DNA of 64,000 nt from Rhizophagus irregularis (Eukaryota). Positions 12,344 to 57,167 of the stretch are shown here, piece by piece. The translations under genes and the position numbers were made by a program. Numbering within the stretch: the stretch's first letter is position 1; each line of letters opens with the position of its first letter. The stretch spans positions 4,278,001 to 4,342,000 of the forward strand of contig NC_089433.1 in assembly GCF_026210795.1 (NCBI RefSeq), read 5' to 3'. A model generated the notes under the pieces. It was given only the letters and a program-made list of their open reading frames with translations, had not been told where the DNA came from and ran no database searches.

Positions 12344-12696
12344 GTCTTTTTTTCTGTATGTGTCTACATACCTAATAGTTTTCTTCAATTTATAATAACC
12401 AAGTGACATGGTCATCAGTCCTTATCAAGGCAAACATGGCATAGTAGCCTTTATCTTTATTAAATTTATTAATCGAACTTACAAAAATAAAATAAAAATT
12501 TTCAAAGTACAAAAAAGAAAAATAAAATTAACTAAAAACAAAACTATATAGTCTCCAAAACAGTAATAAAGTTATAAAATTAATTCAAAAGGAAAAAATC
12601 GCATAACACTAAAACTATCCTGATCCCCCGCCTAGATATATTCCAACCTAAGAAGAAGCAACTATGCAAACAAACCAACGAACAATGCGCCCATTA

Positions 12697-18314: not shown

Positions 18315-18362
18315 TAGAGCACAATGATAATAAGGAACGGGGAAAAGGAATCAAGAAGTCAG

Positions 18363-20480: not shown

Positions 20481-20746
20481 GTTAGAAGGTATGAGTTGGG
20501 TAAAATATAAGAGTTGTTAGTACGAAGATATAAAATTTTCTTTCCAAAAATTTTTGGTCAATAGATCGGCGGTAAGAGATCTATCAGTCCTTATCATCAG
20601 TCCTTATCAAAAAATACAAGAATACCTGATGATGAGGTTACATGGTCATCAGTCCTTATCAAAAATGCAAGAATACCTGATGATAAGGTTACATGGTCAT
20701 CAATCCTTGTCGAAAAAATGCAAGGATACCTGATAAATAAGTTACT

Positions 20747-21053
20747 GGGTTATTGGCCTAGAATGCATTCATGGAAAAACTATGGATTATATTACAGAAA
20801 ATGTGAACGGAGTTCATGTCACATGATACCCTGAACAAATGTGTAGAGTGTCATGTGATTTCACGCAGTATGTAGATTATTTCCTTTTTAGGCGATACCA
20901 TTTCACAAAAATCGATTTTGGTAAAAATGCGTTGGGAATCTTGTGTAACATAAATTTCCTTTTTAGGTAATTCGGGATTACGCGGTAATGCCGGCCGGAT
21001 CTAAAAAATATGACTCTGCAGAGTAATTCCTACAAAAGTCAAGTACAAAATGC
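20747..21053. mobile_element. 307-bp insertion without TIRs, flanked by TTACT direct repeats
   Basis: Absent from copy B; TTACT at 20742-20746 and 21054-21058. Confidence 0.75.
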
Positions 21054-21072
21054 TTACTCCTGTTGAGTCCAT

Positions 21073-21720
21073 TCATACCACCCCCAGTCCCCAAGGATCG
21101 CCTCCCCATCTATGTTCACTTAATGCATGCTCTATGGCAGTGATGTGGCGGGACAGTGTCCCACAAAATTTCGATGTCCTGTCCAAGTCCAATTTCATTT
21201 GTCCCGTCCTGTCCTGTCCAAAATATTGTCCAATTTATTAATATTATATATAAATCATATATATAAATCATATATCCTCTTATAATGAATTTTTGTCCTG
21301 GACATCAACAACATCTTGTTCAAGTCCTGGACTGTTCCGTCCTGTCCCATCCAAGGACATGTTCCAGTCCCAGTCACAACACTGCTTTATGGTTTCCTTC
21401 TCTTGGGGGTCCACGACCATCCCATTCCTAAGCATTTTCTCCATAATATAAAGCTGATCCTCGGTGAGGCAGTCTATCCATCTTTTATAGAAGTCGTTTA
21501 CATCTTCAAATGATATCCAGTCAATATTCCCTTTTTCAAACAGCTTTCCAAGAGCTTGGACATGCCCAATTGTAGTAGCGTAATTTTTCCATCTCTTATA
21601 TGCTTCTTGACGAACCTCCTGCCACTACACACTATCTACTTTACTCGCTGCAATAAGGTCAGTATCTGGGATCTTTGCAACAATGCGTTCGACTATTTCT
21701 ACTGGTAATCAGTCCAACAT
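21073..21720 (-). pseudogene. F-box-like protein 1, copy A (early stop, small deletion, MITE insertion)
   Basis: Homologous to 39041-39439; reads ATG TTG GAC TGA; interrupted at 21138-21384. Confidence 0.75.
21138..21384. mobile_element. hAT-type MITE (247 bp)
   Basis: Termini CAGTGATGTG...CACAACACTG; 8-bp TSD CTCTATGG/CTTTATGG; absent from copy B; internal TGTCC repeats. Confidence 0.85.
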
Positions 21721-21813
21721 GATGTTATGTTACTTATACTATAGCCATCTTCAATTACTGTATGCCCATTACAAATGGATAAAAAATATAAACTAAATTC
21801 GTACAGGAGCCGC

Positions 21814-22283
21814 TTATGCAAGAAGTTCTGCTAAGGTTTTCTCAGCCTCATTCATAGTGACAGCTTGCTTTGGGGACCTGTTAATGAGTCCTTAGTTACA
21901 TTATAATACAACTCGAAGAGGGCCTCAAGTTTGTCTAAAAGAGCTTGTTTATTCTTGTATGATTCACAAATCTTTGCTATCTTAGCAGTATATGCTGCAT
22001 TATCTGGGAAGAGTTTTCTGGCCATGAACTTCACATATGATACAGGAGACTTTGCTGTCTGGATTCTCTTGATATACTTCACATGATCCTGGACAAGGTA
22101 GCTGGTTTTGCTAAACCCAGATACTAATGCGACTACTATAGTGTCTTTTAATGCACGGATAATCTTGAAGACAGTTTCATCAGAGACAATGGTGAACTGA
22201 TTGCATGATGCATCATAAATAACTTCATCACTAATGCTGTCAGTGCAGTTAATAATGCTTGCTAATTCAGTATATGTTGATAT
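21814..22283 (-). pseudogene. Hypothetical 156-aa protein, copy A
   Basis: Homologous to 39533-40003; start codon mutated to ATA and a frameshift near 21865. Confidence 0.7.
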
Positions 22284-22396
22284 GATTCCTTATACTTTTT
22301 TGTACTTTGTAATAAATAGGAATCTTCAAATTGACTTTACATTCAAGCAAGAAAAAATATATATACCTACTGTAAATCCAACTGCATTCTTGGCAA

Positions 22397-24252
22397 TCAT
22401 GTCCAGATAACCTTGTTTGCATTTTTCACATGGCAGTATCCTGCAGTTTCAAACTTGAGAGCTTTCAATGCTTTGGATGCATTTTCTGGACAAGTGATAA
22501 GTGTAGGACTACTCGGCTGTTCCTCTAGAATAAATCCATCTGTATGGATGCGTCGTACTTTATCCTTATATGGTTCTAATAACTCTGAAGTCATCTTCCG
22601 TCCATGTGCTAATAAGAATGGAGCAATCCTAGGATACTCACCCTTGAAGGGACTACCTGGGTTTGTGAATTGGAATCGCCACTGGTCAGATCCTACTGGT
22701 ATGATGGAGTCAAGTGTGTGGCCTTCTGGAAACTTGAATGGATTTGTTTGATCTGTGGTGAGTGTCTTGTAATTGCGTTTCCTCTGGCAGAGTGCTCCCC
22801 ATAATGTATTGAGAACTCTCTTTGCAATACGACCAGCCACGCCACCCTGGTTCTTTATATTGAAGAGAAAGTGAACATACTCACCAAATATTACAGTCCC
22901 AGGAATTCTTGCTTCTCTGTCATATATCAAGGCATTTGGCTTTCCATCCTGGATTAACTGTATATCAAGACCAAGTTTCTTTGCTCGTTGTAAGTCAATG
23001 AATGTATAGACTCCCCTCTTATTCTGTCGGAAGAGAATGTCATTACCACTTACCTTAGCACGAAATAATCCATACAAGGCATAACCTCTGTGGTCTACAA
23101 AGTCTTTGAGTATTTGAAACTTACCTTGTTGGATTGGAAAGTTAGCATTCGATTGCTGAATACTTGGATACAAACTTGTCATGTCGTATTGTCTTCCATA
23201 GCCCTTCCATTCATTATCTGCCCAGATAAGACCTCCCATCATTGCATCACTTATCCACTCTGCTTTGACTGGATCAAGAGGATCATTAGCTGGAACTCCT
23301 ATACTAAACCGTTTAAAAAGCCAGAGAGCAGTTCTCTTGTACAACCAGTTGTGGTAAGATAAGTCGATTCCTAGACCGAACTTCTTTGTAGCCTGTAAAA
23401 AAAATCCCGCTCTTCATAGATCCTCTGGTATGTTTCCTCAAGTATTTCATATATTCCAGTTTTACGATTCTTCTCAATAGGGATGAAGGAGTAACTATCA
23501 GAGTTCTTACCTTTCTGAAACTGTCCAACTGTAAGAGACTTAACTGTCTTACCATTGTATATTGTTACTACATTATTAACCCCATCTTCACGATAAACAA
23601 AGGGAGACTTTTGTTTTCTATCTAATTTACTAGGGTGAAGTCTTCCAGGATTCAGTGCAAGAGAGTAGTGGCCTTCAGACAGGATGAAGGTTGCACGTCT
23701 GTCAGATTTGCTTTTGGAAATTCGAGTGGAATCCCCTACAATATTAAGTGCAAGGCTTCCTGCAAGTTGTTCAATCTTATCCATATATGAGACTAGAACT
23801 GGAGCATCACGATTGAGACCTAATGCCTTTTTGATATATTCAGGCTTTTTTATAGTCTCGGATATTTTAGAGAATATACCATAGATATGCTTCAGGCATT
23901 CATACAGGCAATCATTTAGCTCCCCATTGCATCCCCCTGCAACCGGTGGAGCATCTCTCACATAAATTATGAATCGTTCAAAGTAATCAGGATCTGCATC
24001 ATCTGGTAGTTGTGCTTCATCATAGTGGTCCAAGAGTGAGAAGAGGCTGGCTGGTTGGTTTCCTGATGTCCATCCACCGGGTTTCCAGTTTTCATAGGGA
24101 AGTAGGATCTGGAACTTTCTATCTGGAAATCACGCCTGGAGAGTCTGACCGAGTCTGGCGATAGCTCCTCTGGAAAAGCGGGCACTGGAATACTGAAGTT
24201 CCTTAATGTCAGGTCGTGTTGGTAAAGTGCGGGCGATTCTTGAGTATTGCAT
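22397..24252 (-). pseudogene. Family B DNA polymerase (protein-primed type), copy A
   Basis: AMMGGL, YDMTSLYP, KRVLNTLWG, IHTDG; stop near 24130 and frameshift near 23400. Confidence 0.88.
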
Positions 24253-24336
24253 TTTTATGTATATGATTTGTCTTCAACTATAAATAATATCTTTCTATAT
24301 ATATACGAAAAAAAAAGAAATAATCTCAAATAGCGC

Positions 24337-26918
24337 TTACAATATGTCATTGATAGCGCCCTCAGTATCCTCTTCGTCCCAGTCATCGATGATTCCATTG
24401 GCGGCCTCCCATTCACGTTCCATATCAGTTTTTGGACGTTCCTCTGGGATTTCTCGTGCTTTACCTTTATTCATCTTCATAGTTTCATAACCAGAGGTAG
24501 TAGAGATAATCTTGGCATCACGATCCTCCTTGTATACTCTTATTAGATTTGTGAGTTCTTTACGGCTAGGTGTTTTAGGTGAGTTCCCATTATATTCGAT
24601 CCAGTCCTTGAAGTGGTCTACTACCTCCCTAAAGTAGTACTGGTACTTGTCCTCAATACGCGTTGTGGGACATTCCTCTACTTCAAACGCAAGTATTTCC
24701 CAGTCATACTCGTCTGACGCGTTTTGGTACTTAGCCCATAAATCCTTACCTGTATTGTAGAGATCATTGAACACCTGGTCCTTTGAATTCTTGACCATGG
24801 CTTATGATCCCATCGGTGCCTTTCATGCCAAGCCCAGTGTGCTTGAGTACCTTCCTTTGGTTCAGGGTCCCAGTCAACTTCTAGTTCTGTGTCAGGTTCT
24901 AGGATAGGTTGCTTTTTGAGAGTCAGTTCTACTACAGGTTCTGTAGAAGATTTGGAATCTGCGAGAGATTCAGATTTTGCAGAAGATTCTGCAGGAGACT
25001 CGGGTTGTTGCTCAGGAACTTGGTCTGCAGTTGTAGAATCTGAGTCAGATAGTAAGTTATCTAAAACGTCGTAGTCATCATTAGCTTCAAATGCAGGTTC
25101 CTCAGCAGGCAGCTCATTTTCTTGATCAGGTACCTCATCAGATAGATAACAGTCTGAGAAACTGTCTATAATTTCATTAGTATCTGACTCTATGGGAGCT
25201 GGAGATTCCTCAGGAATAGGATCCTCTTTGATGACAGGTGCAGGTTTTACCTTCAAGCAATCAGGTTTAGGTGGTACTGGTGGAGGAGCCTTTTTGGCAA
25301 CTGGTTGCTTTTCAGTAGGTTTTTCTTCAATAGGAGCAGGTTTTTCCTCAGCAGGTTTCTCAACAACTAGCTCCACTTCCTCTTGATCTACTTGCGATTT
25401 ACTAGCTGGATTATATATATTTGCCAAGAATTTCACCAAGGCATTTGGATCAGATGCGGGCTTCTCAGGAGTTTCTACATCTATTCCTTCTATATTGATT
25501 TCATCTGTTTCATGGATCTATTTTTTGCTGAGGTATTTCTTGTAAAGATCCTCCCTGGATATGCTATATACTTGGGTTAACTTTTTATTTATATAAGTCC
25601 GATTACTATTTATACTCAACTCATTTGATAGAATTCTAGAAGCGTTTATATTTGATAATGGTGAGATGCAATGAGTTTCACAGTATGAAGTATATACCCT
25701 ATAAAATTCTTGAACAGGTAGGTCGGTTATATGATTTTTTACTATGAGGTAAGTGTCCTTTATGAATTGAAATAGGGGTGGAAGAGTCGATATGATGTGA
25801 TCCTGCTTAGATGTTGTCATAGGTGGTGGATTCCCATTGAAGTCTGGGTAAGCATCTGCAATGGCTCTCAAGTAAGCATAGAATGCCTCACTGGTGCCTG
25901 GGTATTTCATAGCGTCACTGAGTTTCTTAAAGTAGTTGAGGTCTCCCTTGCGGGATGGTGACACATCCAAGAACACTGTGTGCCTATCGTCATTCTCCAC
26001 TCTAAGAGCATTTTCATTAGTGAGTACAATGGTGGATATAAAGTTTTTGTAATGTGTTGGCATCTTGTATTTTTCATGGATTTCCATTATGTCACCTGTT
26101 ACCTTATCCTTTAACGATCGATACAGATTATTCCACTGGCTTTTTTCTGTAGGTATTTTCTCGAGGAGGAGAAGAACCTTACCTTGTAATTGCCCATTGA
26201 AACTTCCAAGAATCGTTTGAGGATCGCTAGTCTTATAAACAAGTTGAGTACCTAAGACACTACGTTGAATGAAATCTGTTATAATACTCTTACCCCAACC
26301 CTGTCCAGATTTCAGGTAGAGAATCGAATACATTTTCCTTCCAGCTGCCACACCGGCCAACCACTTTATGATATACTCAGTAAGATTCCAATCGCCTGAA
26401 CACCAAATATCCTGAATGTGAGAGAAGATAAATTTAACCGCGAGGTGGGTTGTAGATTCAAAAGTGGATATCGGACACAGGATATGGAGGAATCCTGGAA
26501 AGATATTGAGATAAAGTTGGCCACCTAGTTTAAAGATACGGGATTTTTGAGGGTCACAGGTAGCTACACATACAGTACTATATTCGATCATAAACCATTT
26601 GTTGATATTAAATTCAACCTTTTGTAAAGGACCCTGTTCAGATTGTGTGTAAAAGACTTTGGTAATTGGACGGATAAGTTTATTAATATTTTTATCAGGG
26701 ATGTGCTTGAGGTTTTTGATTTCTGATCACCACATGAAGACTCCATGCGGGTTGGAGCAGGGGATAAAGTAACTGCAAAGATAACCTTTAGCTTGATTGA
26801 GATCTCTCATATTCTTTGCAGCGTTAATGAGCCGTTTAAGCTCATCAATACTAAAAGCCTTCTTTTGTTCACCGAACTTGGGGATAACTTGAGCTTGAGT
26901 GCTAGTTTGGGCAGTCAT
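24337..26918 (-). pseudogene. SF3/D5-like helicase with winged helix, Pro/Glu-rich linker and C-terminal domain, copy A
   Basis: GQGWGKS Walker A, LLLLE Walker B, LTN motif C; ORF pieces 26727-26933, 25518-26591, 24678-25439 and 24337-24798. Confidence 0.85.
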
Positions 26919-27138
26919 TTTTTGTTCTATCAAATCGAGTACTAATTTATAGTTACCTAATCTTCAATTGCCGAATATTTTTTCCAAAGATCTGCACTCC
27001 TACCAGGTTACCCTCCTGTAGTCCTGTGGTCCTGCGATTCTGCGGTCCTCTGGTTATATCTGGTTATCTTCTAGGGGTAAAAAAAAAACTATAAACCACG
27101 AACCTTTACGACTGCTCTAAATCTTCCCTTCCCCTTTT

Positions 27139-27507
27139 TCAAACTACATATATCTGAAATCCAAACCGCTCAAGAGCTCCTTTTACTATAGTTAGCTCTT
27201 TTCTAGTGTCCGTTAACTCTTTACAAGCCTTTTGATACGCCTTCCATTCAAGTTCATGGAGGTCACGATTTCTATTATCCTCCTCCTCCGATCGACCAAG
27301 AGCATCATTTGCTTTTTCCTTCTTTTCTACTGCCCTGTCGTATGCCTCCTCAGCTTTTTTATGCCACTTCCAGAGTACTTGTTCAGCTTCGGCTTTCCAG
27401 ATTGGGCTGACTTCTAAAAGATGTGGCCCAAAATTGCTACTTGGAATGAGTTCCAGGATATGGCCTACAAGTTCGGGGATTACTGATACTGCGTGCGGGG
27501 TATACAT
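27139..27507 (-). CDS. F-box-like protein 2 with coiled coil, copy A
   Basis: VIPELVGHILELIP...LLEVSPIW pattern; conserved in copy B (57948-58307). Confidence 0.6.
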   Translation of the reverse strand: MYTPHAVSVIPELVGHILELIPSSNFGPHLLEVSPIWKAEAEQVLWKWHKKAEEAYDRAVEKKEKANDALGRSEEEDNRNRDLHELEWKAYQKACKELTDTRKELTIVKGALERFGFQIYVV

Positions 27508-27779
27508 GTTATCTGTCCTTCATCGGGAAATTTTTTAAGATGCAGAACTGCGGAGATCTGTTAAATTAGCAGATCTCCGCATTTTTTTTGTGAATTTATG
27601 CGGAAGTCTGCGATTTTGCAGATTTTCACTTTTTATTTTTTACAAAGTTATGTAATAATCTGCAATTTTGCATATTTCCAATTTTTTATGTATGCATTTC
27701 TGTACGCTAAACCCGGAAAGTTAAAATTAATTCGTTCTTCGATGTTTTCATAAATATTATTAACTCTAACACCATCTAT

Positions 27780-31393: not shown

Positions 31394-31866
31394 GTCGTCG
31401 TGCTGGGTGTGGGCACGGTGCAAGCACCACCCACCTCCGGGTCTAACGACCTGTCGCAGTACCTATCTGGTCCCTACGGAACTCAGGAATCCCCATAAAT
31501 CCTCCACAATCCTACACATAGATCCTCCACAAAAATATATAACAAAAAAGGATAAAATAAAAGAAAAGAGAGGAAAATAAGAGGGAATCAGAAGAGTGTG
31601 GAGGATGTGGAGGATGTGGAGGATGTTTTAAAAAAATCAGGAGAGGGATTCCCCCAGAAAAAAGTTTTGATTTTACCCCCCCAGATCCTCCACATCCAGA
31701 ACATCTTCCACACGTACAGGATTCCGTCCGATCATCTGTATAAGCCGATGAGACAGCAAACCAGGTAGATTAACAGGTAAGCCCCTAGAAGGTCTATAGA
31801 GCTGGTAAGACCAACCCCATCCCGCCCCCGTCAGAAAAAATAAGTAATTGAACAATGGGTATACCA
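31394..31866 (+). repeat. Left TIR of copy B (473 bp)
   Basis: GTCGTCGTGCTGGG...GGGTATACCA; reverse complement of 58333-58805 with only a few mismatches. Confidence 0.95.
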
Positions 31867-31897: not shown

Positions 31898-32218
31898 CTA
31901 ATCCGTTTTCCTCTTTTTTGCCTCTTTAAGACATTTATCAATACACTGCTTGCAAGTGTCATCAGCATCTAAAATTTTCTGTCCGAGTTTTTTGCATTGC
32001 CGATTGTAAGCCGTCTGCTGTCTCTTAGCAGCGGTTTCTTTCTTTTTCTCCTTAGTCTTCTTCTTGATCACCCAGTCTACTCCAGTAAAAGTATTCTTAT
32101 GCATACCACAAATTGTGCAGTCACCATGCAGCCGGTAACGCCCATTTGTAGTCATATCTTGTATTTCACTAGCAGTCTCAGTTTCCTTCTTGCACTTTAG
32201 ACAGTAAAATCGTGTCAT
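31898..32218 (-). CDS. Small basic zinc-ribbon protein (DUF5679-like)
   Basis: MTRFYCLKCKK...GDCTICG, Lys-rich tail and a further CxxC; probable ATG at 32218, divergent from the integrase. Confidence 0.75.
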   Translation of the reverse strand: MTRFYCLKCKKETETASEIQDMTTNGRYRLHGDCTICGMHKNTFTGVDWVIKKKTKEKKKETAAKRQQTAYNRQCKKLGQKILDADDTCKQCIDKCLKEAKKRKTD

Positions 32219-32262
32219 CTTGAGATTTGAAGTCTGAAATCTTTCCTTTAATTTGTCATAAT

Positions 32263-33354
32263 ATGTCACAATTAGAGAATTACTACAAGTACTACAGTCT
32301 ATCCAGAGTACCAGCACGAATTTTAAAAGGTGAAGAGCACTACAACCTATACAAAAAGCCCTTAAAGGAAAAGTCAACAGAACGCCCAAAGGTAATTGTA
32401 TGGAAACCAAATGCAACACACCAGGCAGATCTTGCAGAGATGCCAGTTGACCCCAAAGGATTCCACTATTTCTTCGTAGTGGTGGAAGTTGCAGGAAAGA
32501 GAGTCGATGCAGAGCCCTTGAAGGATAAAACTGCAAATAGGGTTCTCAATGGATTTGTCAAAATCTACAGAAGAAATCGTATCAAGCCTCCAACACACCG
32601 ACTGGAAACCGACTCCGGATCAGAATTCACTAATGACCAGGTACGTGATTTTTTCCTGAACAGCCTAGGGGTGATGATTAGGTTTGGAGAGCCGGGAAGA
32701 CATAAACAGCAATCATATGCTGAAAGAGCTATCCAAGCTATCCAAGAACCCCTTCTTAAACGAATGGTAGCACAGGAGTTGAAAACTGGGGTGACATCCG
32801 TGGAATGGTCAGAAGATTTCCATAATATAGTGAGTAAAGTAAATGAACTCTGGCAGAGAAATCCCCCAGACATTCCGACAGGGTCACCCAAAGTGTCAAA
32901 AAAGACAGACCTCCTCTCTGAAGGAACACGTGTCAGAGTCAAGTTAGATGAACCTATTTCTGTACTTGGTAACAAACTTCATGGAAAATTCCGTACAGGA
33001 GACATAAGATGGAACCCAAACATTCGTGTAATCAAAAAAATGATACTCTCACCTGAACAGCCTCCTACATATCTCCTTAATGGACCACATGGTCGATTAG
33101 GTGTATCCAGATGTGCATATACCCGAAAGGAATTGCAAGTAGTTTCTATTAATGAAAAGCCTCCACCTGACTCTGTGATAAGAGGACAACCCAAAAGATT
33201 CATACCTGAGCAGATACTTCGGCATCGCATTAGAAAAGGTCAAGACCAGTATTTGGTTAAGTGGGAGAGATACCCAGATACAGAAGCCACTTGGGAACCT
33301 GCTGACCAGTTGAAGGAAGATGTCCCTGACTTAATTCGCAAATTTTGGGAATAA
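32263..33354 (+). CDS. rve (DDE) integrase with C-terminal chromodomain
   Basis: HQADL, ETDSGSEF, YAERAI; Polinton-like GTRVRV...KFRTG...W segment; chromodomain YLVKWERYPDTEATWEP. Confidence 0.93.
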   Translation: MSQLENYYKYYSLSRVPARILKGEEHYNLYKKPLKEKSTERPKVIVWKPNATHQADLAEMPVDPKGFHYFFVVVEVAGKRVDAEPLKDKTANRVLNGFVKIYRRNRIKPPTHRLETDSGSEFTNDQVRDFFLNSLGVMIRFGEPGRHKQQSYAERAIQAIQEPLLKRMVAQELKTGVTSVEWSEDFHNIVSKVNELWQRNPPDIPTGSPKVSKKTDLLSEGTRVRVKLDEPISVLGNKLHGKFRTGDIRWNPNIRVIKKMILSPEQPPTYLLNGPHGRLGVSRCAYTRKELQVVSINEKPPPDSVIRGQPKRFIPEQILRHRIRKGQDQYLVKWERYPDTEATWEPADQLKEDVPDLIRKFWE

Positions 33355-33379: not shown

Positions 33380-34116
33380 TTATTTTTTATCCCCTCGATT
33401 AGCATCAGGAACTATTGGGATAAAAACATTCTTCCCATTACAGGTAAAGGCTATATGTTCACGTGATTCATGGATATCATAATTGTAACGTTTCAGACAC
33501 GTTCGGCTTAACCCAATTTCCCTATGCTTGTAACCACTTAAGACTGCAAGGTCCTCAGTGATAGCATAATCAGGGGTAAGTTTGATTGTCACTCCCTTTA
33601 CCATACCGAATGTCCTACCTGTTCCTGGAGCACCAGATATGTTGTATGTAATACTCTTGTCGATATCCAACCCTAATTCCTCAGCAGCTTCTCTCTGAAT
33701 AAAAGACGCATTAGCACAAGTGTCTGCTAAACACTGAATTGCTATCCCATTAACCTCCCCATCCAGTGCTAAAAGATCTTTAGTATTCTCCAAACGAGCT
33801 ATATCAATATCCATAGGATCGTATTCCCTGATATCCTCTTCTTGTTCCTCCTCAGCTAAGTCATCTGAAATCTCTATGACTTTTCTAGCAGACATCATCT
33901 CCTCCTGAAGAATCTCACGGAGTAATTTCCTAAAGTCTGCAGACCTTAACAGGCTTAATAAGTCATTCTTAGTAACAGCTTTTGCAGGTGTAGACTTACT
34001 ACCAGTAACTTTCACAGGAATCTTAACAGGGGTTGCTTTGCCTTTCAAGGGTACACTAGAAGAGCTAACTGCTGTCTTATTTGGGGACGACTTAAGAAGT
34101 TTTGAGATACTCGAAC
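33380..34116 (-). CDS. Retropepsin-like aspartic protease, probably expressed as a Gag-Pro fusion
   Basis: GEVNGIAIQCLADTCANASFIQREAAEELGL; frame is open up to the A9 run at 34121-34129. Confidence 0.78.
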
Positions 34117-35547
34117 CTACTTTTTTTTTGACCCAACACGAACCATATAGACATCACCAACTTTTTCTCTCAATTCTACCTTTTCACCAAAACTCACAGT
34201 ATCAATGTCCATAGCATCATCGTTAAGATCAAGGTTTCTCATTGCTCGGGCCAAATCCAGATCATCACGTCTATCTTTAGCCTTCTGAAGTTGTTTTGTA
34301 AGTATTTTAGACGTCCCACGTTTATATCCCATAATAAGATCAATAGCATTTTGATGATCATCCAAAGTCCACTCAGGAGCATCAGGATCATCACCAACAT
34401 CATGATCTACATAACCATCATCCCAATCAGGATCCTGAGGATCCTGAATAACACGTCTCTGTGGTTTTGGTCGAACAGGTTTAATCTGCTGTCTATAGAC
34501 TGGTGGATTACGAACTGGCCGAGCCTGTAATTGTTTAAATTGCACCTGAAAATTCTTGGTAAGTTCCTCAGCTTGAGCCTTAAGTAACTCTTGTAATTGT
34601 TCTTGAGTAACCCCAGATGACTTTGATGTCAGTACGACAGGTTCCTGTTTTCCTAACGGAGGTTGAGTTACATCACTGTAATCTGCTTGAAGTCGTCGAT
34701 TTCTATCTTGTAACCCCAAGCGCATTTCAGCCCTTCTCTGTTCTAAATTTCTCAGATGTTTAACCAAGTCATCAGAATTAAGATTGTGAAACCTTTCTGC
34801 TTCAAAAATATTATCAGCCGAAAGACCTCTAAAGAACTGGTCGATAATAAGATCATTAGTTAGTTTTAGTAATTTTCCAGCCCTCTTTACAGTTCTATAA
34901 AATGCATCAACTGGCTCATTTTCCTGATAAAGACTGTTAAAACGGATACGTTTCTTTTCATCTAAAATAGTTGGGAATTGTGTTCTAAGCCAATAAAGCG
35001 CCTGGTTAGGTTTAATACCTGGAAAAACTATAGGCCGATTATCATTAGCAGCAACACCAGCATCTGCAGTAGCCGGAGCAGCTCTATCTGTCGGACGAGC
35101 ACCAGCTCTTCCTCAAGCTTTATCTCCACCTATTAAATCATGAGTAGGAATAAATGCTGCTCTAATAGTTGCTAATGCATTAACTGGATCTGTAGCATAA
35201 GTCTGTGCTTCAGACCCATTTACATAAGTACCTGCATTCGGTCCTCCTGCACCTTCTGGTATTACTAATGCTACAAAAGCAGCTAAATTAGCTCCACCTC
35301 TTGAAGTGATACCAGAAAGTTCCCAATTTTTTCCTGTAATTTCTCGATCAAACCATTCAGCTGCTCCACCGGCCATGCAGCTTCTAAGTATACCCATAGC
35401 TCTTTTCCAAGACTCTGGTGGCCCTCCAGCAGCATATGGGTTAAGATTAATAGTATCAAGATAACCCATATAAAGCCTAACAAATGTATCAATATCATCA
35501 GTAGCTTTACCCTCAAAAATCGGCAATCCTATCGCAGTGGTAGCCAT
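34117..35547 (-). CDS. Ty3/gypsy-type Gag capsid protein (~476 codons, one in-frame TGA at 35113-35115)
   Basis: LPIFEGKATDDIDTFVRLY...ILRSCMAGGAAEWF (CA-NTD) and LYQENEPVDAFYRTV...IIDQFFRGL (MHR/CA-CTD); parallels the gypsy Gag at 51051-51758 in this window. Confidence 0.82.
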
Positions 35548-36326
35548 ATCGTCTCTAGTGGATTGTTTAATATAGGTGGAGGAGGGTTCAATTGTCTAAT
35601 TCGAAACCATTGTACCTGAATTCTAAGAGCAGCTATCTGTTGGAAAAGTTTATTTCTAAGTCTCCCTAATGTCTGAATCCCAAAACGCACCCTATTATTA
35701 GCATGTGCTAGCTGTGCATTAACCTGTCCAAGTTGCGCATTAGCCAATACAAGTTGTCCTCCAGTCCGAGTAGCCCTCAGCCGCCAATGATTTAGAAGGA
35801 TATTACCACGATTCACAGCATTTTGAGCCTCATTACGATCCCTTACTGCTTGAGTATAATCTGCTTGTAATACATTACGTTCATGTCGTGCCTGATTACG
35901 TTCACCTATAGCCCGTCGACGAAACTCTACCATAGTATCATAATCTCTTTGCAGGTTATGGTTTTCTTCTATGAAATTATCATTGGCAGCACGTATAATA
36001 ACTAATTGACGTTCTAAATTAGTAAACGTTTCATCAAATGCATTTATCTTACCTTGTGCAAAAACTAACAAATCTTTTGTAATACCAAGTTCTTCATGTT
36101 TTGCTTTACAGCGATACATTAATATATTAATAATATGTTTGATTTGATTATTTGCCTCCTGTATCTCTGAATCAACAGTTAAACGACCCCTGGTAGTCAA
36201 TAAATTTGCATGAGCCTTTAGTATTCTAACTAATTCATCATCGTCTTTTTCATTGACCAAGTGTGCAGGAGGCGGTCCAGTAGGTTCTGAAGGAGTATAA
36301 ACTGGAATTGGTGTTGATGTCGACAT
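35529..36326 (-). CDS. 265-aa coiled-coil protein overlapping the Gag start
   Basis: Intact ORF with heptad-rich centre and Pro-rich ends; conserved in copy A. Confidence 0.75.
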   Translation of the reverse strand: MSTSTPIPVYTPSEPTGPPPAHLVNEKDDDELVRILKAHANLLTTRGRLTVDSEIQEANNQIKHIINILMYRCKAKHEELGITKDLLVFAQGKINAFDETFTNLERQLVIIRAANDNFIEENHNLQRDYDTMVEFRRRAIGERNQARHERNVLQADYTQAVRDRNEAQNAVNRGNILLNHWRLRATRTGGQLVLANAQLGQVNAQLAHANNRVRFGIQTLGRLRNKLFQQIAALRIQVQWFRIRQLNPPPPILNNPLETIWLPLR

Positions 36327-36357: not shown

Positions 36358-37581
36358 ATGGATCTTTATGTATACAATTTGGACGAGTACACGACTGACT
36401 CAAGACAAGGCAATGAGTTTGCTCCATCATGGCCCTTTCGATTAGCCGTAGCAGGTAGCTCAGACTCAGGTAAGACAACTATGATCATTAACTTGTTAAT
36501 GGGTGACAAGAAGGCAAAGGAGGATGGTAATCGGTATGTACTATGTGATGCAGTACTTTTAGTTGGCAGATATCTTGACGAGCCGAAGTGGGCAGTTGTA
36601 CATGATTTTTTCAAAGAGGAGAAGATCCCATTCACTGCAGTAACCCATAGTGAGATTCCAGAGATTGACTCCTTCGACCCTACTCAAGCTACTGTGGTAA
36701 TCTTCGAGGATCTGATGGATGCACCTAAAAAAATCCAGGATCTCATCACTGGTTACTTTACACATGGACGACACAAAAATATTTCATATATTTATGTAGC
36801 CCAAAGATTCTTTGCCATGCCTAAGGCTATTCGAGAAAATGTTAACTACATCTCACTGCATGGAGGTCATGGGAGCCTTACAGATACTAAGAGAATCATC
36901 CGCCTATATACAGAAGAATCAGAGTCATTAGCACCAGTAATTGATGATCTTACTCTGCAACGTGAATTTGTAGTGTTTGATCTTAGACGGTCTAAAAGTG
37001 ATCCACTGTCCATTCGAGTAAGATGGGATACTAGTCTCAGTTCGATCACAGAGCAATCTCAGTTCAATCCTAGTTCAATCTCAGTTCAATCTCAGTTTGA
37101 TCCAAGTTTGAACCCAGTTCGATCTCAGTCTGAACCCAGTTCAATCACAGTTCGATCCAAGTTTAGTCCCTATGGTCAGAAAGCTGTATCTGAAGCAAAA
37201 AAAGGTGGACACTTGATTGAATTTGCTCGGGTATTTCCATCCCCTAAAGAGCGTCAACATTTACTTGTACCTGGTGTCTTAGCCAAGAATACAGATACCT
37301 GGATTAAATTTGTCTTTCGGGAAGCTTATGGACTTTCTGGTAAGACCCTAGGAGCTGACTTTCAGGACTTCTTAGCAAAAGTACAGGGTAGGACTGCAAA
37401 GACTGAAACTCTGAAAACTGAGAATGTGAAGGAGTTATTCTCCCGATATGAAGCCCTGAAGTCTAGTCGCCCTCTGGATAATAAAAAAATAATAGAAGGT
37501 ATTGAAGATCTTCTACAGATCTTTTCTAAGAGCCACATGGACCGTCGAGCATTACAAGTAGGGATTAATAGTATCTTGTGA
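36358..37581 (+). CDS. A32/FtsK-HerA-like genome-packaging ATPase with C-terminal extension
   Basis: PFRLAVAGSSDSGKTT Walker A, VVIFED Walker B, FTHGRHKNIS.IYVAQ.FF..PKAIRENVNY signature of Polinton/NCLDV packaging ATPases. Confidence 0.92.
   Translation: MDLYVYNLDEYTTDSRQGNEFAPSWPFRLAVAGSSDSGKTTMIINLLMGDKKAKEDGNRYVLCDAVLLVGRYLDEPKWAVVHDFFKEEKIPFTAVTHSEIPEIDSFDPTQATVVIFEDLMDAPKKIQDLITGYFTHGRHKNISYIYVAQRFFAMPKAIRENVNYISLHGGHGSLTDTKRIIRLYTEESESLAPVIDDLTLQREFVVFDLRRSKSDPLSIRVRWDTSLSSITEQSQFNPSSISVQSQFDPSLNPVRSQSEPSSITVRSKFSPYGQKAVSEAKKGGHLIEFARVFPSPKERQHLLVPGVLAKNTDTWIKFVFREAYGLSGKTLGADFQDFLAKVQGRTAKTETLKTENVKELFSRYEALKSSRPLDNKKIIEGIEDLLQIFSKSHMDRRALQVGINSIL
37036..37167 (+). repeat. 12 x 11-bp tandem array inside the ATPase gene (also 10627-10758 in copy A)
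   Basis: Units CTCAGTTCGAT, CACAGAGCAAT, CTCAGTTCAAT, CCTAGTTCAAT ... CCAAGTTTAGT. Confidence 0.85.
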
Positions 37582-40116: not shown

Positions 40117-41973
40117 TCATGTCCAGATAACCTTGTTTGCATTTTTCACATGGCAGTATCCTGCGGTTTCAAACTTGAGAGCTTTCAATGCTTTGGATGC
40201 ATTTTCTGGACAAGTGATAAGTGTAGGACTACTCGGCTGTTCCTCTAGAATAAATCCATCTGTATGGATGCGTCGTACTTTATCCTTATATAGTTCTAAT
40301 AACTCTGAAGTCGTCTTCTGACCATGTGCTAATAAGAATGGAGCGATCCTAGGATACTCACCCTTGAAGGGACTACCTGGGTTTGTGAACTGGAATCGCC
40401 ACTGGTCAAATCCTACTGGTACGATGGAGTCAAGTGTGTGGCCTTCTGGAAACTTGAATGGATCTGTTTGATCTGTGGTGAGTGTCTTGTAATTGCGTTT
40501 CCTCTGGCAGAGTGCTCCCCATAGTGTATTGAGAACTCTCTTTGCAACACGACCGGCCACGCCACCCTGGTTCTTTATATTGAAGAGAAAGTGAACATAC
40601 TCACCAAATATTACAGTCCCAGGAATTCTTGCTTCTCTGTCATATATCAAGGCATTTGGCTTTCCATCCTGGATTAACTGTATATCGAGACCAAGTTTCT
40701 TTGCTCGTTGTAAGTCAATGAATGTATAGACTCCCCTCTTATTCTGTCAGAAGAGAATGTCATTACCACTTACCTTGGCACGAAATAATCCATACAAGGC
40801 ATAACCTCTGTGGTCTACAAAGTCTTTGAGTATTTGAAACTTACCTTGTCGGATTGGAAAGTTTGCATTTGATTGCTGAATACTTGGATACAAACTTGTC
40901 ATGTCGTATTGTCTTCCATAGCCCTTCCATTCATTATCTGCCCAGATAAGACCTCCCATCATTGCATCACTTATCCACTCTGCTTCGACTGGGTCAAGAG
41001 GATCATTGGCTGGAACCCCTACACTAAACTGTTCAAAAAGCCAGAGTGCAGTTCTCTTGTACGACCAGTTGTGGTAAGATAAGTCGATTCCTAGACCGAA
41101 CTTCTTTGTAGCCTGTAGAAAGGAATCCCGCTCTTCATGGATCCTCTGGTATGTTTCCTCAAGTGTTTCATATATTCCAGTTTTACGATTCTTCTCAATA
41201 GGGATGAAGGAGTAACTATCAGAGTTCTTACCTTTCTGAAACTGTCCAACTGTAAGAGACTTAACTGTCTTACCATTGTATATTGTTACTACATTATTAA
41301 CCCCATCTTCACGATAAACAAAGGGAGACTTTTGTTTTCTATCTAATTTACTAGGGTGAAGTCTTCCGGGATTCAGTGCAAGAGAGTAGTGGCCTTCAGA
41401 CAGGATGAGGGTTGCACGTCTGTCAGATTTGCTCTTGGAAATTCGAGTGGAATCCCCTACAATATTAAGTGCAAGGCTTCCTGCAAGTTGTTCAACCTTA
41501 TCCATATATGAGACTGGAACTGGAGCATCACGATTGAGACCTAATGCCTTTTTGATATATTCAGGCTTTTTTATAGTCTCGGGTATTTTAGAGAATATAC
41601 CATAGATATGCTTCAGGCATTCATACAGGCAATCATTTAGCTTCCCATTGCATCCCCCTGCAACCGGTGGAGCATCTCTCACATAAATTATGAATCGTTC
41701 AAAGTAATCAGGATCTGCATCATCCGGTAGTTGTGCTTCATCATAGTGGTTTAAGAGTGAGAAGAGGCTGGCTGGTTGGTTTCCTGATGTCCATCTACCG
41801 GGTTTCCAGTTTTCATAGGGGAGCAGGATCTGAAATTTATGTGTCGGATACCGGGATTGGAGTCGCTGTCCAAGTCTTGCTATTACTCCTCTGGAAAATC
41901 TTGCGCCTGAATACTGTAATTCTTTGATATCCGGTCTTGTAGGTAAAGCACGGACAATCTCTGAATAAACCAT
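40117..41973 (-). pseudogene. Compact family B DNA polymerase, protein-primed type (618 codons; single CGA>TGA at 40747-40749)
   Basis: Motif A YDMTSLYP, motif B KRVLNTLWG, motif C IHTDG, pre-A AMMGG; the two ORFs are in frame and copy A has Arg at the stop position. Confidence 0.88.
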
Positions 41974-42037
41974 TTGATGTATTTATGAATTGTGTTCAGT
42001 TGTAATATAGGTTTTTTATACAAAAAATATAAGATAA

Positions 42038-44106
42038 CTAAGAAGTGCTTATCTTATTAAAAGGAGTCAATCTTGCTGCATACACGATCAAGATCCTCTT
42101 CATCCCAGTCATCGACGATTCCATTGGCAGCTTCCCATTCACGTTCCATATCAGTTTTTGGACATTCCTCTGGAATTTCTCGTGCTTTACCTTATTCATC
42201 TTCATAGTTTCATAACCAGAGGTGGTAGGGATAATCTCGGCATCACGATCCTCCTTGTATACTCTTATTAGATCTGCAAGCTCTTTACGGCTAGGTGTTT
42301 TAGATAAGTATCCATTATATTCGATCCAGTCCTTGAAGCGGTCTACTACTTCCCTAAGGTAGTACTGGTACTCGTCTTCAATACGTGTTGTGGGACATTC
42401 CTCTACTTCAAACGCGAGTATTTCCAAGTCATACTCGTCTGACGCGTTTTGGTACTTAGCCCATAAATCCTTACCTGTATTGTAGAGATCATTGAAGACC
42501 TGGTCCTTTGAATTCTTGACCCATGGCTTATAATCCCATCGGTGCCTTTCATGCCAAGCCCAGTGTGCTCGAGTACCTTCCTTTGGTTCAGGGTCCCAGT
42601 CAACTTCTAGTTCTGTGTCGGGTTCTGGGATAGGTTGCTCTTCAGGAGCCGGTTCTGGGTCAGGATTAGTGACAGATGCAGAAGATTCTGCGGGAGACTC
42701 GGATTGTTGTTCAGGAGCCAGTTCTGGGTCAGGCTTAGTGACAGATGCAGAAGATTCTGCGGGAGACTCGGGTTGTTGTTCAGGAGCTGGGTTCACAGTT
42801 GTAAAATCTGAGTCAGATAGCAAGTCATCTAAAACGTCATAGTCATCATCAGCTTTAAATGCAGGTTCCTCAGCAGGCGGCTCATTTTCTTGATCAGGTT
42901 CCTCATCAGATAGATAACAGTCCGAGAAGCTATCTATAGGTTCATCAGTATCTGACTCTATAGGAGCTGGAGATTCCTCAGGAATAGGATCCTCATTGAT
43001 GACAGGTGCGGGTTTTACCTTCAAGCAATCGGGCTTAAGTGGTACTGGTGGTGGAGTCTTTTTGGAAACTGGTTTCTCTTCAGTAGGCTTCTTCTCGACA
43101 GGAGCGGGTTTTTCCTCAGCAGGTTTCTCTTGTACGTCTTGTGGATTATTAGCAGGAATGCTATGTATATTTGCCAAGAACTTCTCTAAGGCTTTGGGAT
43201 CAGATGCGGGTTTCTCAGGAGTATCTATATCAATTCCTTCTATATCGATTTCATCTGTTTCATGTATCCAGTTTTTGCCAAGAAACTTCTTGTATAGATC
43301 CTCCCTAGATATACTGTAAACTTGTGGTGTTGTTTTACCTATACGCATTTTTTTACTTTTTATACTTAGCTCATTTGATAGGATTCTGGATGCATTGATC
43401 TTTGATAGGGGTGAAATGCAATGAGTTTCACAGTATGAAGTATATACCCTATAAAATTCTTGAATAGGTAGGTCGGTTATATGATTTTTTACTATGAGGT
43501 AAGTGTCCTTTATGAATTGAAATAGGGGTGGGAGAGTCGATATGATGTGATCCTGCTTAGATGTTATCATAGGTGGTGGATTCCCATTGAAGTCTGGGTA
43601 AGCGTCTGCAATGGCTCTCAAGTAAGCATAGAATGCCTCACTGGCGCCTGGATATTTCATAGCATCACCGAGTTTCTTAAAGTAGTTGAGGTCTCCCTTG
43701 CGGGATGGTGACACATCCAAGAACACTGTGCGCCTATCATCATTCTCCACTCTGAGAGCATTTTCATTGGTGAGTACAATGGTGGATATAAAGTTTTTGT
43801 AATGTGTTGGCGTCTTGTATTTTTCATGGATTTCCATTATGTCACCTGTTAACTTATCCTTCAACGATCGATACAGATTATTCCACTGGCTTTTTTCTGT
43901 AGGCATTTTCTCAAGGAGGAGAAGAACCTTACCTTGTAATTGCCCATTGAAACTTCCAAGAATCGTTTGAGGATCGCTGGTCTTATAAACAAGTTGAGTA
44001 CCTAAGACACTACGTTGAATGAAATCTGTTATAATACTCTTACCCCAACCCTGTCCAGATTTCAGGTAGAGAATCGAATACATTTTCCTTCCAGCTGCCA
44101 CACCGG
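42038..44106 (-). pseudogene. SF3/D5-like helicase, 3' part (interrupted by the LTR element)
   Basis: GQGWGKS, LLLLE, LTNEN, DDRR; winged-helix-like segment and Pro/Glu repeats; 1-nt deletion near 42190. Confidence 0.88.
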
Positions 44107-45484
44107 TGTCACCCCCGTCTGCCACCCGGCGGTAAACAAAGTTCCCTGCTTCTGTTATATGTGCTCTCAGCGAAACATTAACATTCTTGCTTGGTTTAGT
44201 TTTATTACTACTTAACTTTCAAATTGCGATAGCTCTCGCCACGATATTTCATCCATTATCTTCTTTCAAAATACGATAGTTCTCTTTACAAAAGTTTATA
44301 TTTTATTCATTTCATAATTCTTGTTATGACATTAAATTCACCATGAATTTGTCCAATTAAAATTAATTAAGCGAACATTACAGTAAAGTTTAGGGCGAAC
44401 CTATTACCTTTAAAATAACATTACGCTTTACTAACAATTAATTAAACAAAATTACTTTTTCATCATAGGAAAATAGTAACAAAAACAATCGAAACAATTA
44501 ATTTTCATATAAAGGGTATTTTATTTATTCTTCATAAAATTCACAATTTAACTAATTTACTTAAAGTTTTACATCGTATCTGACGACTGTGGAATTCACC
44601 TCCCATTCCGCTCCTATTTAAACCAACTTTCTTATTCTTTCTTTTCTTACTTCTTATTTCTTTCTAATATTTTATATGTTATCTTTTATGCGCTATCTTA
44701 TATGCTATTTATATATTATCTTTTCTAATATGTTATACTATTTTAATACGCTATCTTTTCTTTAAAATAAAATAATCTTTCAAATATTATATCGTAAAGA
44801 TCCATCTTTTGTGGCTATGCTATCTTTTCTTTAAAATAAAATAATCTTTCGAATATTATATCGTAAAGATCCATCTTTTGTGGCTGTGCTATCTTTTCTT
44901 TAAAATAAAATAATCTTTCAAATATTATATCGTAAAGATCCATCTTTTGTGGCTGTGCTATCTTTTCTTTAAAATAAAATAATCTTTCAAATATTATATC
45001 GTAAAGATCCATCTTTTGTGGCTGTGCTATCTTTTCTTTAAAATAAAATAATCTTTCAAATATTATATCGTAAAGATCCATCTTTTGTGGCTGTGCTATC
45101 TTTTCTTCTGCGTCTCGTCAGCTATTCTTCTACTGCGGCTGCAGTTCATCAATATTTTACATGTTCCTATTTTTTTTGTTCCTTTAATTCGCTATCCTTC
45201 CTTTTTATATGATTTATCATTTGTGGCTTATGATTACTCCTCCTAATTGTTCCTATTGTTGAACTTGATAAACTGGTTGCTAAGCCACATCGATCAACTC
45301 CCCACTTGATCTATTGGTTCCCCGTTAATCATTTAATAAACATTACATCATGTAGATCATTCCTTCTCCTAAAAGTTTATCCTTTCCGGTTAGTTTTATC
45401 CAATCATGTGACTTTCTATCGTTTGATCTTTTATTCCATATTATTCCTCCATATTATGCGATTACTTCAGCATCTATGGCTACA
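44107..45484 (-). repeat. 3' LTR (1378 bp)
   Basis: TGTCACCCCC...GGCTACA; no differences seen by eye from 55786-57163. Confidence 0.96.
44750..45107. repeat. Five-plus copies of a 69-bp tandem repeat inside the LTR (also 56429-56786)
   Basis: GCTATCTTTTCTTTAAAATAAAATAATC... unit starts at 44750, 44819, 44888, 44957, 45026 and partially at 45095. Confidence 0.92.
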
Positions 45485-45499
45485 GTTTGCCCCCCACCT
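45485..45499 (-). promoter_or_regulatory. Polypurine tract
   Basis: Minus strand AGGTGGGGGGCAAAC immediately before the 3' LTR. Confidence 0.8.
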
Positions 45500-45514
45500 A
45501 AAATTTGAGTCCCA

Positions 45515-46702
45515 TCAAATTCGAACTATTACTTCAAAATTTGTCCTATCAATATATTCTTTCAGTAATTCGCCATTTACTGGTGTTTTCAATATCTTCC
45601 CTTCCATAGTTTTAATTCTGTATGATCCTTTAGAAATTATCTCATGTACATAATAGGGTCCTTTCCATTTTTCTTCTAACTTTCCAGACCATTGTTTTTC
45701 TTTTGCTGCGTCATAATATAGTACTTTATCTCCGATTTGTAATTTCTGCTTTACTCTATTCTTTTTATCATGGTACGATTTTTGTTTTTCCTGAGATTTC
45801 CTGACATTTTCTTTAGCTTGATTCCTAATGTTTGGTAATCCTTCGATCAACCCATTAACTCTCTCTGCCATGGTAATTTCCTTATCTTCTAAATCTAATA
45901 ATGTCTTCATTTGTCTCCCATATATTAAATATCCTGGTTCCATTTTCGTTGAATCATTCCTTTTAGTTCGATACGCGAACAATACTCCTGGTACTTTCAA
46001 ATCCCAATCTTCGATATTACTTAGCTTTGCTAATGATTCACATAATGTCTTATTAAATCTTTCAATTAACCCATTAGTTTTTGGATGATAAGGCGTTGAA
46101 AAGTTATGTTTTATCTGAAATTCCTCCATTAATGATTTCACTAATTTATTATTGAAATGACTCCCTCTATCACTCAATATCTTCTTTGGACATCCATGCC
46201 TACATATTATATCTTCATAAATAAATCTTGCAATTTCCTTAGCATCTGCTGTTTCCAATGCCTTTGCTTCAGGCCATTTTGTAAAATAATCCATCGCTGT
46301 AACTATATATCTATTATTTCTCTTTGTTACTGGTAATGGTCCCACTACATCAATCCCAATTTGATAAAATGGTTCTATAACTTTGATTACATTCAGTTCA
46401 TGTTTTCCTATTGGTTTTCCTCTTCTCTGACAATTATTACATGATTTGACATAAGCTTCCACATCTTTTCTCATCCCTTTCCAATAATACCCATCCTTGA
46501 TCCTATTATACGTTGCATCTATTCCAAAGTGTCCTGATAATTCATGATCATGAGCTATGTACATTAATCCTTCAAATTCGTATTTTCTTATCACTCTTAG
46601 TCTTTTCTCATCTTTTATTTTGTAAATTAATCCTCCTATAATTTCATATTCCCGTTCGTCGTTGATATTCCTCGCTATCCTATTATATTCTTCCTCTTCC
46701 AT
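45515..46702 (-). CDS. Ty3/gypsy integrase (H2C2 finger, rve core, GPY/SH3-like tail) as a separate ORF
   Basis: HDHELSGHFG...CNNC; GIDVVGP; SDRGSHF; GLIERFN; WKGPY. Confidence 0.95.
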   Translation of the reverse strand: MEEEEYNRIARNINDEREYEIIGGLIYKIKDEKRLRVIRKYEFEGLMYIAHDHELSGHFGIDATYNRIKDGYYWKGMRKDVEAYVKSCNNCQRRGKPIGKHELNVIKVIEPFYQIGIDVVGPLPVTKRNNRYIVTAMDYFTKWPEAKALETADAKEIARFIYEDIICRHGCPKKILSDRGSHFNNKLVKSLMEEFQIKHNFSTPYHPKTNGLIERFNKTLCESLAKLSNIEDWDLKVPGVLFAYRTKRNDSTKMEPGYLIYGRQMKTLLDLEDKEITMAERVNGLIEGLPNIRNQAKENVRKSQEKQKSYHDKKNRVKQKLQIGDKVLYYDAAKEKQWSGKLEEKWKGPYYVHEIISKGSYRIKTMEGKILKTPVNGELLKEYIDRTNFEVIVRI

Positions 46703-46932
46703 GTCTATGTTGTAATTCTAAAAGCTAAAGTGTTGTAAAAGGTTGAAATGTTATAAAAGGTTGAAGTGTTGTAAAAATTAAGGTGTTGTAAAAATTAAGG
46801 TGTTGTAAAAATAAAGCGTCGTGATAACTGTTCCATATATTTTTAATTTTCATCTCTTGATTTATTTTTGATCCTTGGTATTTCTATCCTTCTTATATAT
46901 TTTTCATTCCCTACAATCAATTTAGATCGTAC

Positions 46933-47184
46933 TCATCCTAATCCTTTTTCTATTGGTCTTTCTTCTATTATCATATTGTTTCCATCTTCCATAATTAATT
47001 TCACCTTTTTCTCTTTTAGTCTTATTATAATGTGTACATCTACTAGTATGAAGTCTTCTTCTTCTTCAATCCTTAAATGGATAATTGTTTCGTTCTCTTC
47101 TTCTTTTATGGTCACTTTCCATATCTTATCGACCTTTACTCGATAAGTAAGAAACCAATTCATATAACAATCTCCTAATACCAT
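46933..47184 (-). CDS. Hypothetical 83-aa ORF between the kinase domain and integrase
   Basis: ATG-initiated, same strand and purine-rich codon style as its neighbours; no recognised motif. Confidence 0.4.
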   Translation of the reverse strand: MVLGDCYMNWFLTYRVKVDKIWKVTIKEEENETIIHLRIEEEEDFILVDVHIIIRLKEKKVKLIMEDGNNMIIEERPIEKGLG

Positions 47185-47199
47185 TTTGGAAATATAATT

Positions 47200-55768: not shown

Positions 55769-55782
55769 CGGAGCATGCACCA
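55769..55782 (-). promoter_or_regulatory. Primer-binding site (possibly tRNA-Gly)
   Basis: Minus strand TGGTGCATGCTCCG begins 3 nt after the 5' LTR; the tRNA identity is an inference from the ...UGCACCA 3' end. Confidence 0.65.
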
Positions 55783-55785
55783 AAT

Positions 55786-57163: not shown

Positions 57164-57167
57164 GCGG

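Follow-up and report, generated by a model that had tools for sequence, protein, structure and literature searches.

We analysed a 64,000-nt stretch of the Rhizophagus irregularis genome (contig NC_089433.1, positions 4,278,001 to 4,342,000; hereafter the window), which holds two copies of a 14.4-kb Polinton/Maverick-like element with a DNA polymerase B of the protein-primed type (pPolB), an SF3 helicase, an A32 ATPase, an rve integrase, terminal inverted repeats (TIRs) and a 5-bp target-site duplication (TSD). Copy 2 spans 31394-58805 and measures 14,354 bp once an LTR retrotransposon at 44107-57164 is subtracted; its TIRs are 473 nt long and flanked by a 5-bp TGACC duplication. Its near protein relatives are named Rhizophagus irregularis, and two are 100% identical to the query. 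The features are as follows, with the evidence for each in brackets.

4981..27520, no strand assigned: element copy 1 with its left TIR at 4981, a LINE at ~12429-20590 and the right TIR missing (sequence comparison)
6972..7721, minus strand: -1 frame linker and protease of copy 1 (ORF reading)
7709..9139, minus strand: Gag of copy 1, stops at 8705-8707, 8300-8302 and 8189-8191 (ORF reading)
7713..7721, minus strand: A9 putative slip run of copy 1 (sequence)
31394..31866, plus strand: left TIR of copy 2, TGACC target duplication just before it (sequence comparison)
31898..32236, minus strand: small DUF5679 ORF (profile match)
32263..33354, plus strand: rve integrase, chromodomain at its C-terminus, in convergent orientation to the protease (profile match)
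33380..34129, minus strand: -1 frame with basic linker and retropepsin domain, D-T-C-A motif, Asp codon at 33722-33724 (Pfam; dN/dS)
34117..35547, minus strand: Gag, predicted retro-type capsid with N- and C-terminal domains, coiled coils and an acidic tail ending KKK, no zinc knuckle, TGA at 35113-35115 (profile and structure comparison)
34121..34129, minus strand: A9 putative slip run of copy 2, TCA AAA AAA AAG TAG (sequence; no indel listed in 4/4 sequencing runs; A9-A11 in 23/23 in-register relatives)
35529..36326, minus strand: coiled-coil ORF, its end overlapping the Gag ATG in a -1 arrangement (no family match)
36358..37581, plus strand: A32-type packaging ATPase, also in relatives L006 and L018 (Pfam Pox_A32, E 9e-9)
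40117..41982, minus strand: pPolB, TGA at 40747-40749 (Pfam DNA_pol_B_2, E 7e-5, below the curated cut-off)
42038..57774, minus strand: SF3/D5-like helicase gene (DUF5906), LTR retrotransposon inside at 44107-57164 (profile match, sequence comparison)
58333..58805, minus strand: right TIR of copy 2, 98% complementary to the left, then TGACC (sequence comparison)

The element is a Polinton/Maverick by its combination of pPolB and rve integrase with TIRs, a target duplication and an A32 ATPase, the pPolB match lying below the curated cut-off and the TSD being 5 bp. Polintons/Mavericks typically have a 6-bp TSD and ends in AG, whereas the ends here begin GTC. The only ORFs of at least 300 aa in copy 2 are the integrase, Gag, ATPase, pPolB and helicase, and no Pfam or PHROG match to a double jelly-roll capsid or an adenain-like cysteine protease was found. 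Family searches with the coiled-coil ORF gave no match above lead level. Between the two gene blocks of the element lie 3-4 tandem units of 51-53 nt, in each of which an inverted repeat encloses an A tract (38811-39026 and 20594-20753), and this region is also the point of the LINE insertion in copy 1. Two small F-box-like ORFs were seen at 39041-39448 (weak Pfam match) and 57948-58325 (by eye).

On the minus strand, Gag ends GGG TCA AAA AAA AAG TAG in both copies. Re-reading the sequence, we confirmed what an earlier note on this DNA had described: nine A's at 34121-34129 and 7713-7721, the Gag stop codon directly 3' of each run, the protease in the -1 frame, and the heptamers A_AAA_AAA and A_AAA_AAG both correctly phased in the window copies. 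From the A tract the -1 frame reads KKK-V-G-S-S-I-S-K-L-L (KKKVGSSISKLL) and continues stop-free into the retropepsin domain, with its earliest in-frame Met 75 codons past the run, in agreement with the note's open protease frame that has no ATG near its 5' end. The concern that the run length might be a homopolymer sequencing error was ruled out by the absence of any listed indel at the run in 4/4 sequencing runs from four studies and by gap-free contigs that span it in runs X1, X4 and X6. With 95% identity between them over the first 7.4 kb, the window copies prove little about conservation by themselves.

A metagenome scan returned 26 loci, of which 24 span the Gag-protease junction; L025 and L026 stop short of it and were left out of the junction counts. 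Element genes (integrase, DUF5679 or ATPase) adjoin the protease in 21/26 loci; in 19/26 the protease ORF is closed by a stop opposite a convergent integrase or DUF5679; and no reverse transcriptase (RT) match, as an LTR retrotransposon would have downstream of the protease, occurred at the 26 loci. Scans of IMG/VR by protease, protease alignment or ATPase gave no relatives, which is no evidence against particles. Comparing run length and frame offset across these loci, along the lines of a check proposed with the earlier note, upheld the -1 offset of the protease in 23/24 loci, with runs of A9 (19 loci), A10 (3) and A11 (1). The exception, L008, is out of register with a run of A8, whereas A9 is present in its sister L012. 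The offsets of L004 and L019, which have little upstream DNA, were assigned by hand as -1. Five loci (L004, L012, L016, L023, L024) are decayed, and the offset of L012 is local only. Together with the two window copies, the junction loci form 14 clusters at 80% protease identity, with a minimum identity of 46%, and the loci with A10 and A11 retain the -1 offset. Direct fusion of the frames in other copies, which the earlier note had set against its own reading, was found in 0/24 loci and, among 83 predicted proteins that contain both domains, in P0039 alone, whose fusion may be a mutant or an assembly slip.

We then characterized the two products on either side of the junction. A profile of 32 Gag relatives matched the C-terminal domain of the PEG10 capsid (CA) with E 8e-5. 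A structure model built from relative L018 (mean pLDDT 72) gave 37 top structural rows, all of them retroviral, retrotransposon or Arc-type capsids, over residues 1-290 with Z up to 8.5, a value that is modest singly but uniform across rows. Foldseek with Gag returned nothing at E 0.001 or better, and its best rows were PEG10 CA. On the profile and the model, Gag is predicted to have the two-domain helical CA fold of retroviral type, which bears out its reading as a true retro-type Gag. None of the 32 relatives contains a CCHC zinc-knuckle nucleocapsid. The C-terminus is KKK or KKR in 27/32 relatives, three of the remaining five being truncated, and in 20/23 more distant Gags hand-picked as reaching the C-terminal region; two distant CCHC-bearing Gags, P0323 and P0335, also end near VKK(K). 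Among the more distant Gags, CCHC is present in 6/16 long matches examined and two show a D-T-G-S protease motif in frame, which points to capture of gag-pro from an LTR retrotransposon. Given the VKK(K) ends of P0323 and P0335, the donor LTR family may already have carried the A-run signal.

In all six sequences that reach the 5' end of Gag (35529-35620; 9120-9210; L006, L008, L018, L021), the coiled-coil ORF overlaps it in a -1 arrangement and stops 17-20 nt beyond its ATG. A perfect in-phase T_TTA_AAC at this overlap was seen in copy 1 only (1/6), and an ATG with G at +4 is kept in 6/6. Passage from the coiled-coil ORF to Gag may involve reinitiation, a splice acceptor or a second frameshift.

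The protease domain scores 33.5 bits with Pfam Asp_protease_2, where the cut-off is 24.3; its profile gave no match, by sequence, to solved structures. In 29/30 proteases the catalytic motif is D-[TS]-C-A and not D-[TS]-G, with the Asp kept and Gly replaced by Cys, so that protease activity is not certain. The distance from run to catalytic Asp is 115-150 codons, with the frame kept throughout. In the protease frame, 25/26 sequences have no stop within the initial 30 codons past the run, against 5/26 and 0/26 in the other frames, and the earliest Met in the protease frame wanders from codon 10 to 105 across relatives. The linker has a dN/dS of 0.38 and the domain one of 0.17, both pooled over eight pairs; the value for the Gag tail (0.55 pooled) was set aside because several tails were misaligned. 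Repeated (P/A)-M-D-(I/T) motifs are conserved in Gag tail and linker alike. Judged from these comparisons, the second frame is open and under purifying selection from the slip site on, with no conserved start codon nearby. Since the linker after the run is both open and under such selection, we read the frame change as programmed. Taken with the offset in 23/24 loci and the linker dN/dS of 0.38, this supports a programmed, deeply conserved -1 frame change that would join a retro-type Gag to a retropepsin in a Polinton-like family, much as the earlier note had claimed for a DNA element.

The window copies themselves are broken. Upstream of the slip site, one shared capsid codon is TGA in each (35113-35115 and 8705-8707), an in-frame stop absent from the earlier note; this codon is TGG throughout in runs X3, X4 and X6, and Trp in many predicted relatives. 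Copy 2 has further stops at 40747 (pPolB) and 38567 (another ORF) and a helicase split by the LTR element, and copy 1 has three Gag stops in all, a LINE insertion and no right TIR. Both copies are dead. Because the capsid stop lies upstream in both, ribosomes would not reach the slip site, and the note's inference of functional particle assembly rather than a dead insertion fails for these insertions; selection is seen at the family level only. The change from TGG to TGA sits on different local haplotypes (DKA*GR and DEA*KR), each known with Trp elsewhere, and either parallel mutation or gene conversion could account for the shared TGA.

Next, we examined what kind of signal is kept at the run. 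The heptamer A_AAA_AAA is in phase in 23/23 in-register loci and A_AAA_AAG in 14/23, being absent in 9/23. The run starts at codon position 3 in 17 loci, position 2 in five and position 1 in one, and never has fewer than nine A's when in register; a branch with 99/99 support has the position-2 form on either side (L006/L007 versus L010 and L014/L018). A heptamer takes only seven A's, yet in-register runs have at least nine, so something selects length. The Gag stop falls 1-2 nt past the run in 21/23 loci, and both exceptions have A10, which fits a translation-coupled effect. Gag ends in KKR are always preceded by Q or K, preserving nine A's, and lysines at the run are coded by AAA only, compared with 58% of Lys codons elsewhere. 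A tracts elsewhere in the coding strands comprise A7 (30 times) and A8 (six times), with A9 or longer found zero times where 1-2 were expected. The kept feature is at least nine A's in any codon phase, and the slip may therefore be ribosomal or transcriptional.

The explanation we prefer, to which we give about an even chance of being right, is structure-free ribosomal -1 slipping on a run of at least nine A's, with Gag-protease as the minority product and most ribosomes stopping at the Gag stop. Ribosomes would slip back one base on the run through tandem tRNA-Lys slippage on A_AAA_AAA, with help from the additional A's and from slow termination at the stop next to the run; the Gag-protease would likely be a small share, the majority terminating at the Gag stop. 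The fused protease would dimerise in assembling Gag shells and cut at the (P/A)-M-D-(I/T) motifs, a role suggested by their conservation in Gag tail and linker, and the gag-pro cassette would have come from an LTR retrotransposon, displacing the jelly-roll capsid and cysteine protease. Speaking for ribosomal slipping are the -1 offset in 23/24 loci, the open, selected linker, A_AAA_AAA in all 23 loci and the near-fixed stop distance. In the cited reports, human-cell reporters yield more -1 product with longer A tracts (PMC4552401), and ribosome sliding tracks the number of A's, not lysines (PMC4363877). Counting against it are the sliding results of that study in the E. coli PURE system, robust at A11 alone and weak with nine or ten A's, the D-[TS]-C-A motif in 29/30 proteases, the direct fusion in P0039 (1/83) and the phase-free threshold of nine, which is a prediction of polymerase slippage.

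That prediction belongs to the main rival, transcriptional slippage by Pol II, in which one A is added (or two are dropped) on the T9 template and ordinary translation yields Gag-protease; we regard it as a genuine but rather unlikely possibility. It accommodates a length of at least nine kept whatever the codon phase, with the phase-2 form on both sides of the 99/99 branch, as well as the Q or K before KKR ends that keeps nine A's, the lack of any 3' structure found and, weakly given the 1-2 expected, the zero count of A9 or longer elsewhere in the coding strands. Slippage data in the cited passages were also counted in its favour: bacterial RNAP slips efficiently at 9 A/T, which is the hybrid length (PMC5009743), and yeast Pol II makes more insertions than deletions, rising with tract length (PMC5650487). 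However, no +1 A variant appeared among the matches listed for four possible RNA runs (contigs only, the RNA status being guessed for three), no transcribing polymerase is encoded by the element itself, Pol II may slip too rarely at A9, and the model has no need of the adjacent stop. Run X14 shows a -1 variant at 87.6 and a -2 variant, which would fuse the frames, at 96.1 of 1915.6 depth, but the same is seen at a non-coding A9 at 33353 (211 and 161 of 2229 for -1 and -2), and these run-length variants were not used for that reason; X14 has deletions at all homopolymers. X17 and X18 contigs cross the junction unspliced with the run unaltered, and X19 has no contig over it. The unspliced contigs also bear on a proposed intron, starting at the GT-R after the run, that would remove the stop and join the frames. 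A GT does lie within 3 nt of the run in 22/26 sequences, and gene predictors bridge the frames by introns, but the GT is missing in 4/26 and elsewhere follows from AAG/AGG plus stop, the supposed intron is open in the protease frame in 25/26, and the predicted introns are mutually inconsistent. The contigs weigh little here, as their spliced joints point to antisense transcripts, and we consider splicing highly improbable. In X17 contigs, GT..AG joints on the plus strand at 34297-34368 and 34557-34632 mark spliced transcripts antisense to gag from some copy.

The model of the earlier note, a classical retroviral -1 frameshift with a heptamer and a downstream hairpin or pseudoknot, is very unlikely. 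Retroviruses and LTR retrotransposons likewise have a capsid gene overlapping a -1 frame retropepsin at an A-rich X_XXY_YYZ site, the gag-pro site of MMTV being A_AAA_AAC with a pseudoknot, and the gene layout here resembles betaretroviral gag-pro. Unlike retroviral Gag-Pro(-Pol), the cassette here is followed by no RT/RNase H, sits with a DNA replication module, shows no predicted stimulator and keeps to a length rule of at least nine A's. Of the retroviral-type slippage, then, the in-phase A_AAA_AAA stood in 23/23 loci, whereas A_AAA_AAG (14/23) did not hold throughout and no stimulator was found. Folding of the 3' sequence, also suggested with the note, gave mean z values of +0.18 (60-nt windows) and +0.27 (90-nt windows), with 0/26 below -2; consensus folds 3' of the run reach only -1.5 and -0.4 kcal/mol, and a crude, heuristic pseudoknot scan put 2/26 at a shuffle fraction of 0.04 or less (median 0.4), which is no excess. 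A 12-nt indel directly past the Gag stop among close relatives likewise speaks against a fixed stimulator. Equally slight in our estimate is the chance of independent protease synthesis, off an internal AUG or a dedicated promoter, with the A run merely coding the basic Gag tail: the (P/A)MDID motif, ~30 residues ahead of the catalytic Asp, has a well-conserved Met that would yield the whole domain, but the first Met of the frame wanders, and 115-150 open, selected codons, the fixed -1 offset and the AAA-only lysines are left unexplained. We give hardly any weight to switching at the DNA level, by which replication slippage would make A10 fused copies that supply protease in trans. Run lengths of 8-11 occur and P0039 is directly fused, but such fusion is confined to 1/83 proteins and 0/24 loci, and loci with A10 or A11 still show the -1 offset.

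For a slip on a bare A run, ribosomal or transcriptional, the closest parallels are Thermus dnaX and IS elements, whose programmed slippage on 9 A/T is transcriptional, and the sliding of ribosomes on poly(A), which are likewise dependent on run length, with a threshold near nine and no RNA structure; these are bacterial cases or reporter constructs, whereas the present case is a eukaryotic element. In the literature searched, we found no eukaryotic case of a Gag:protease ratio set by slippage on an A run, nor any earlier description of this Gag/protease recoding site, most subscription papers lying outside the scope of that search. Predicted slippery sites are reported in adintovirus Penton and Hexon, not Gag (PMC11071296, cited part).

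The element itself belongs to a known group. Polintons/Mavericks of Glomus intraradices (Rhizophagus irregularis), as described in the cited texts, likewise have pPolB, rve integrase, A32 ATPase and long TIRs over ~14 kb; they are reported without a detectable major capsid protein and cited as living as transposons (PMC7805220). Cited passages further describe Mavericks as expanded in Glomerales (PMC11952901) and recently expanded in R. irregularis (PMC8647823), and fungal A32 ATPases as grouping with Maverick-Polintons (10.64898/2026.06.19.733378, preprint). Those texts, in the parts cited, mention no Gag capsid, retropepsin or recoding site, whereas the present element has all three. Fig. 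5 of Starrett et al. 2021 (PMC8502044) labels a MELD-type element 'Matrix/Capsid/NC/Pro', its legend noting a likeness to retroviral Gag and retropepsin and an adintovirus-like PolB, and the Fig. 3 legend names a Rhizophagus PolB. Judged from these legends, the MELD-type element is probably the present Gag-bearing family, with the difference that its label includes NC whereas the Gags here have no CCHC nucleocapsid (0/32). Section 3.4 of that paper is silent on the MELD-type element, and the sole 'frameshift' in the cited text concerns a human relic. Rhizophagus Mavericks and -1 gag-pro recoding are known; the recoding site of a Gag-bearing Polinton-like family is a variant of such known kinds without a description in the literature searched.

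A selected gag-pro module and recoding site kept down to 46% identity suggest a family invested in its Gag:protease ratio, as is typical of particle assembly. Tentatively, these elements may be dsDNA viruses of mycorrhizal fungi with a retrotransposon Gag and retropepsin swapped in for jelly-roll capsid and cysteine protease, in which the retained A32 ATPase would load protein-primed DNA genomes into Gag shells, and slippage on nine A's with no RNA structure involved, perhaps that of Pol II itself, would set the Gag:protease ratio; we hold this doubtful rather than likely. If true, it would supply the 'missing capsid' of Glomus Polintons. The selected gag-pro module also raises the questions whether a retro-type shell can serve a DNA-replicating element with an A32 ATPase, and whether a bare nine-A run is a programmed eukaryotic recoding signal, read by the ribosome or by Pol II. 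Current gene models of the Gag-bearing family bridge the junction with inconsistent predicted introns.

Several further features surround or interrupt copy 2. It is nested within another inverted-repeat element (31366-31393 and 58806-59050), and a palindromic satellite with a 327-bp period lies at 61697-63069. The LTR retrotransposon at 44107-57164 is Ty3-like, and its insertion is very recent, as its 1,379-bp LTRs are 100% identical. Its gag-pol has a TGA at 51051, a TGA-CTA at 50136, which we take to be a read-through-like context, and a -1 offset of protease versus RT at G_GAA_AAA near 49535; at the end of its RT ORF lies a P-loop domain resembling thymidylate kinase (weak Pfam match).
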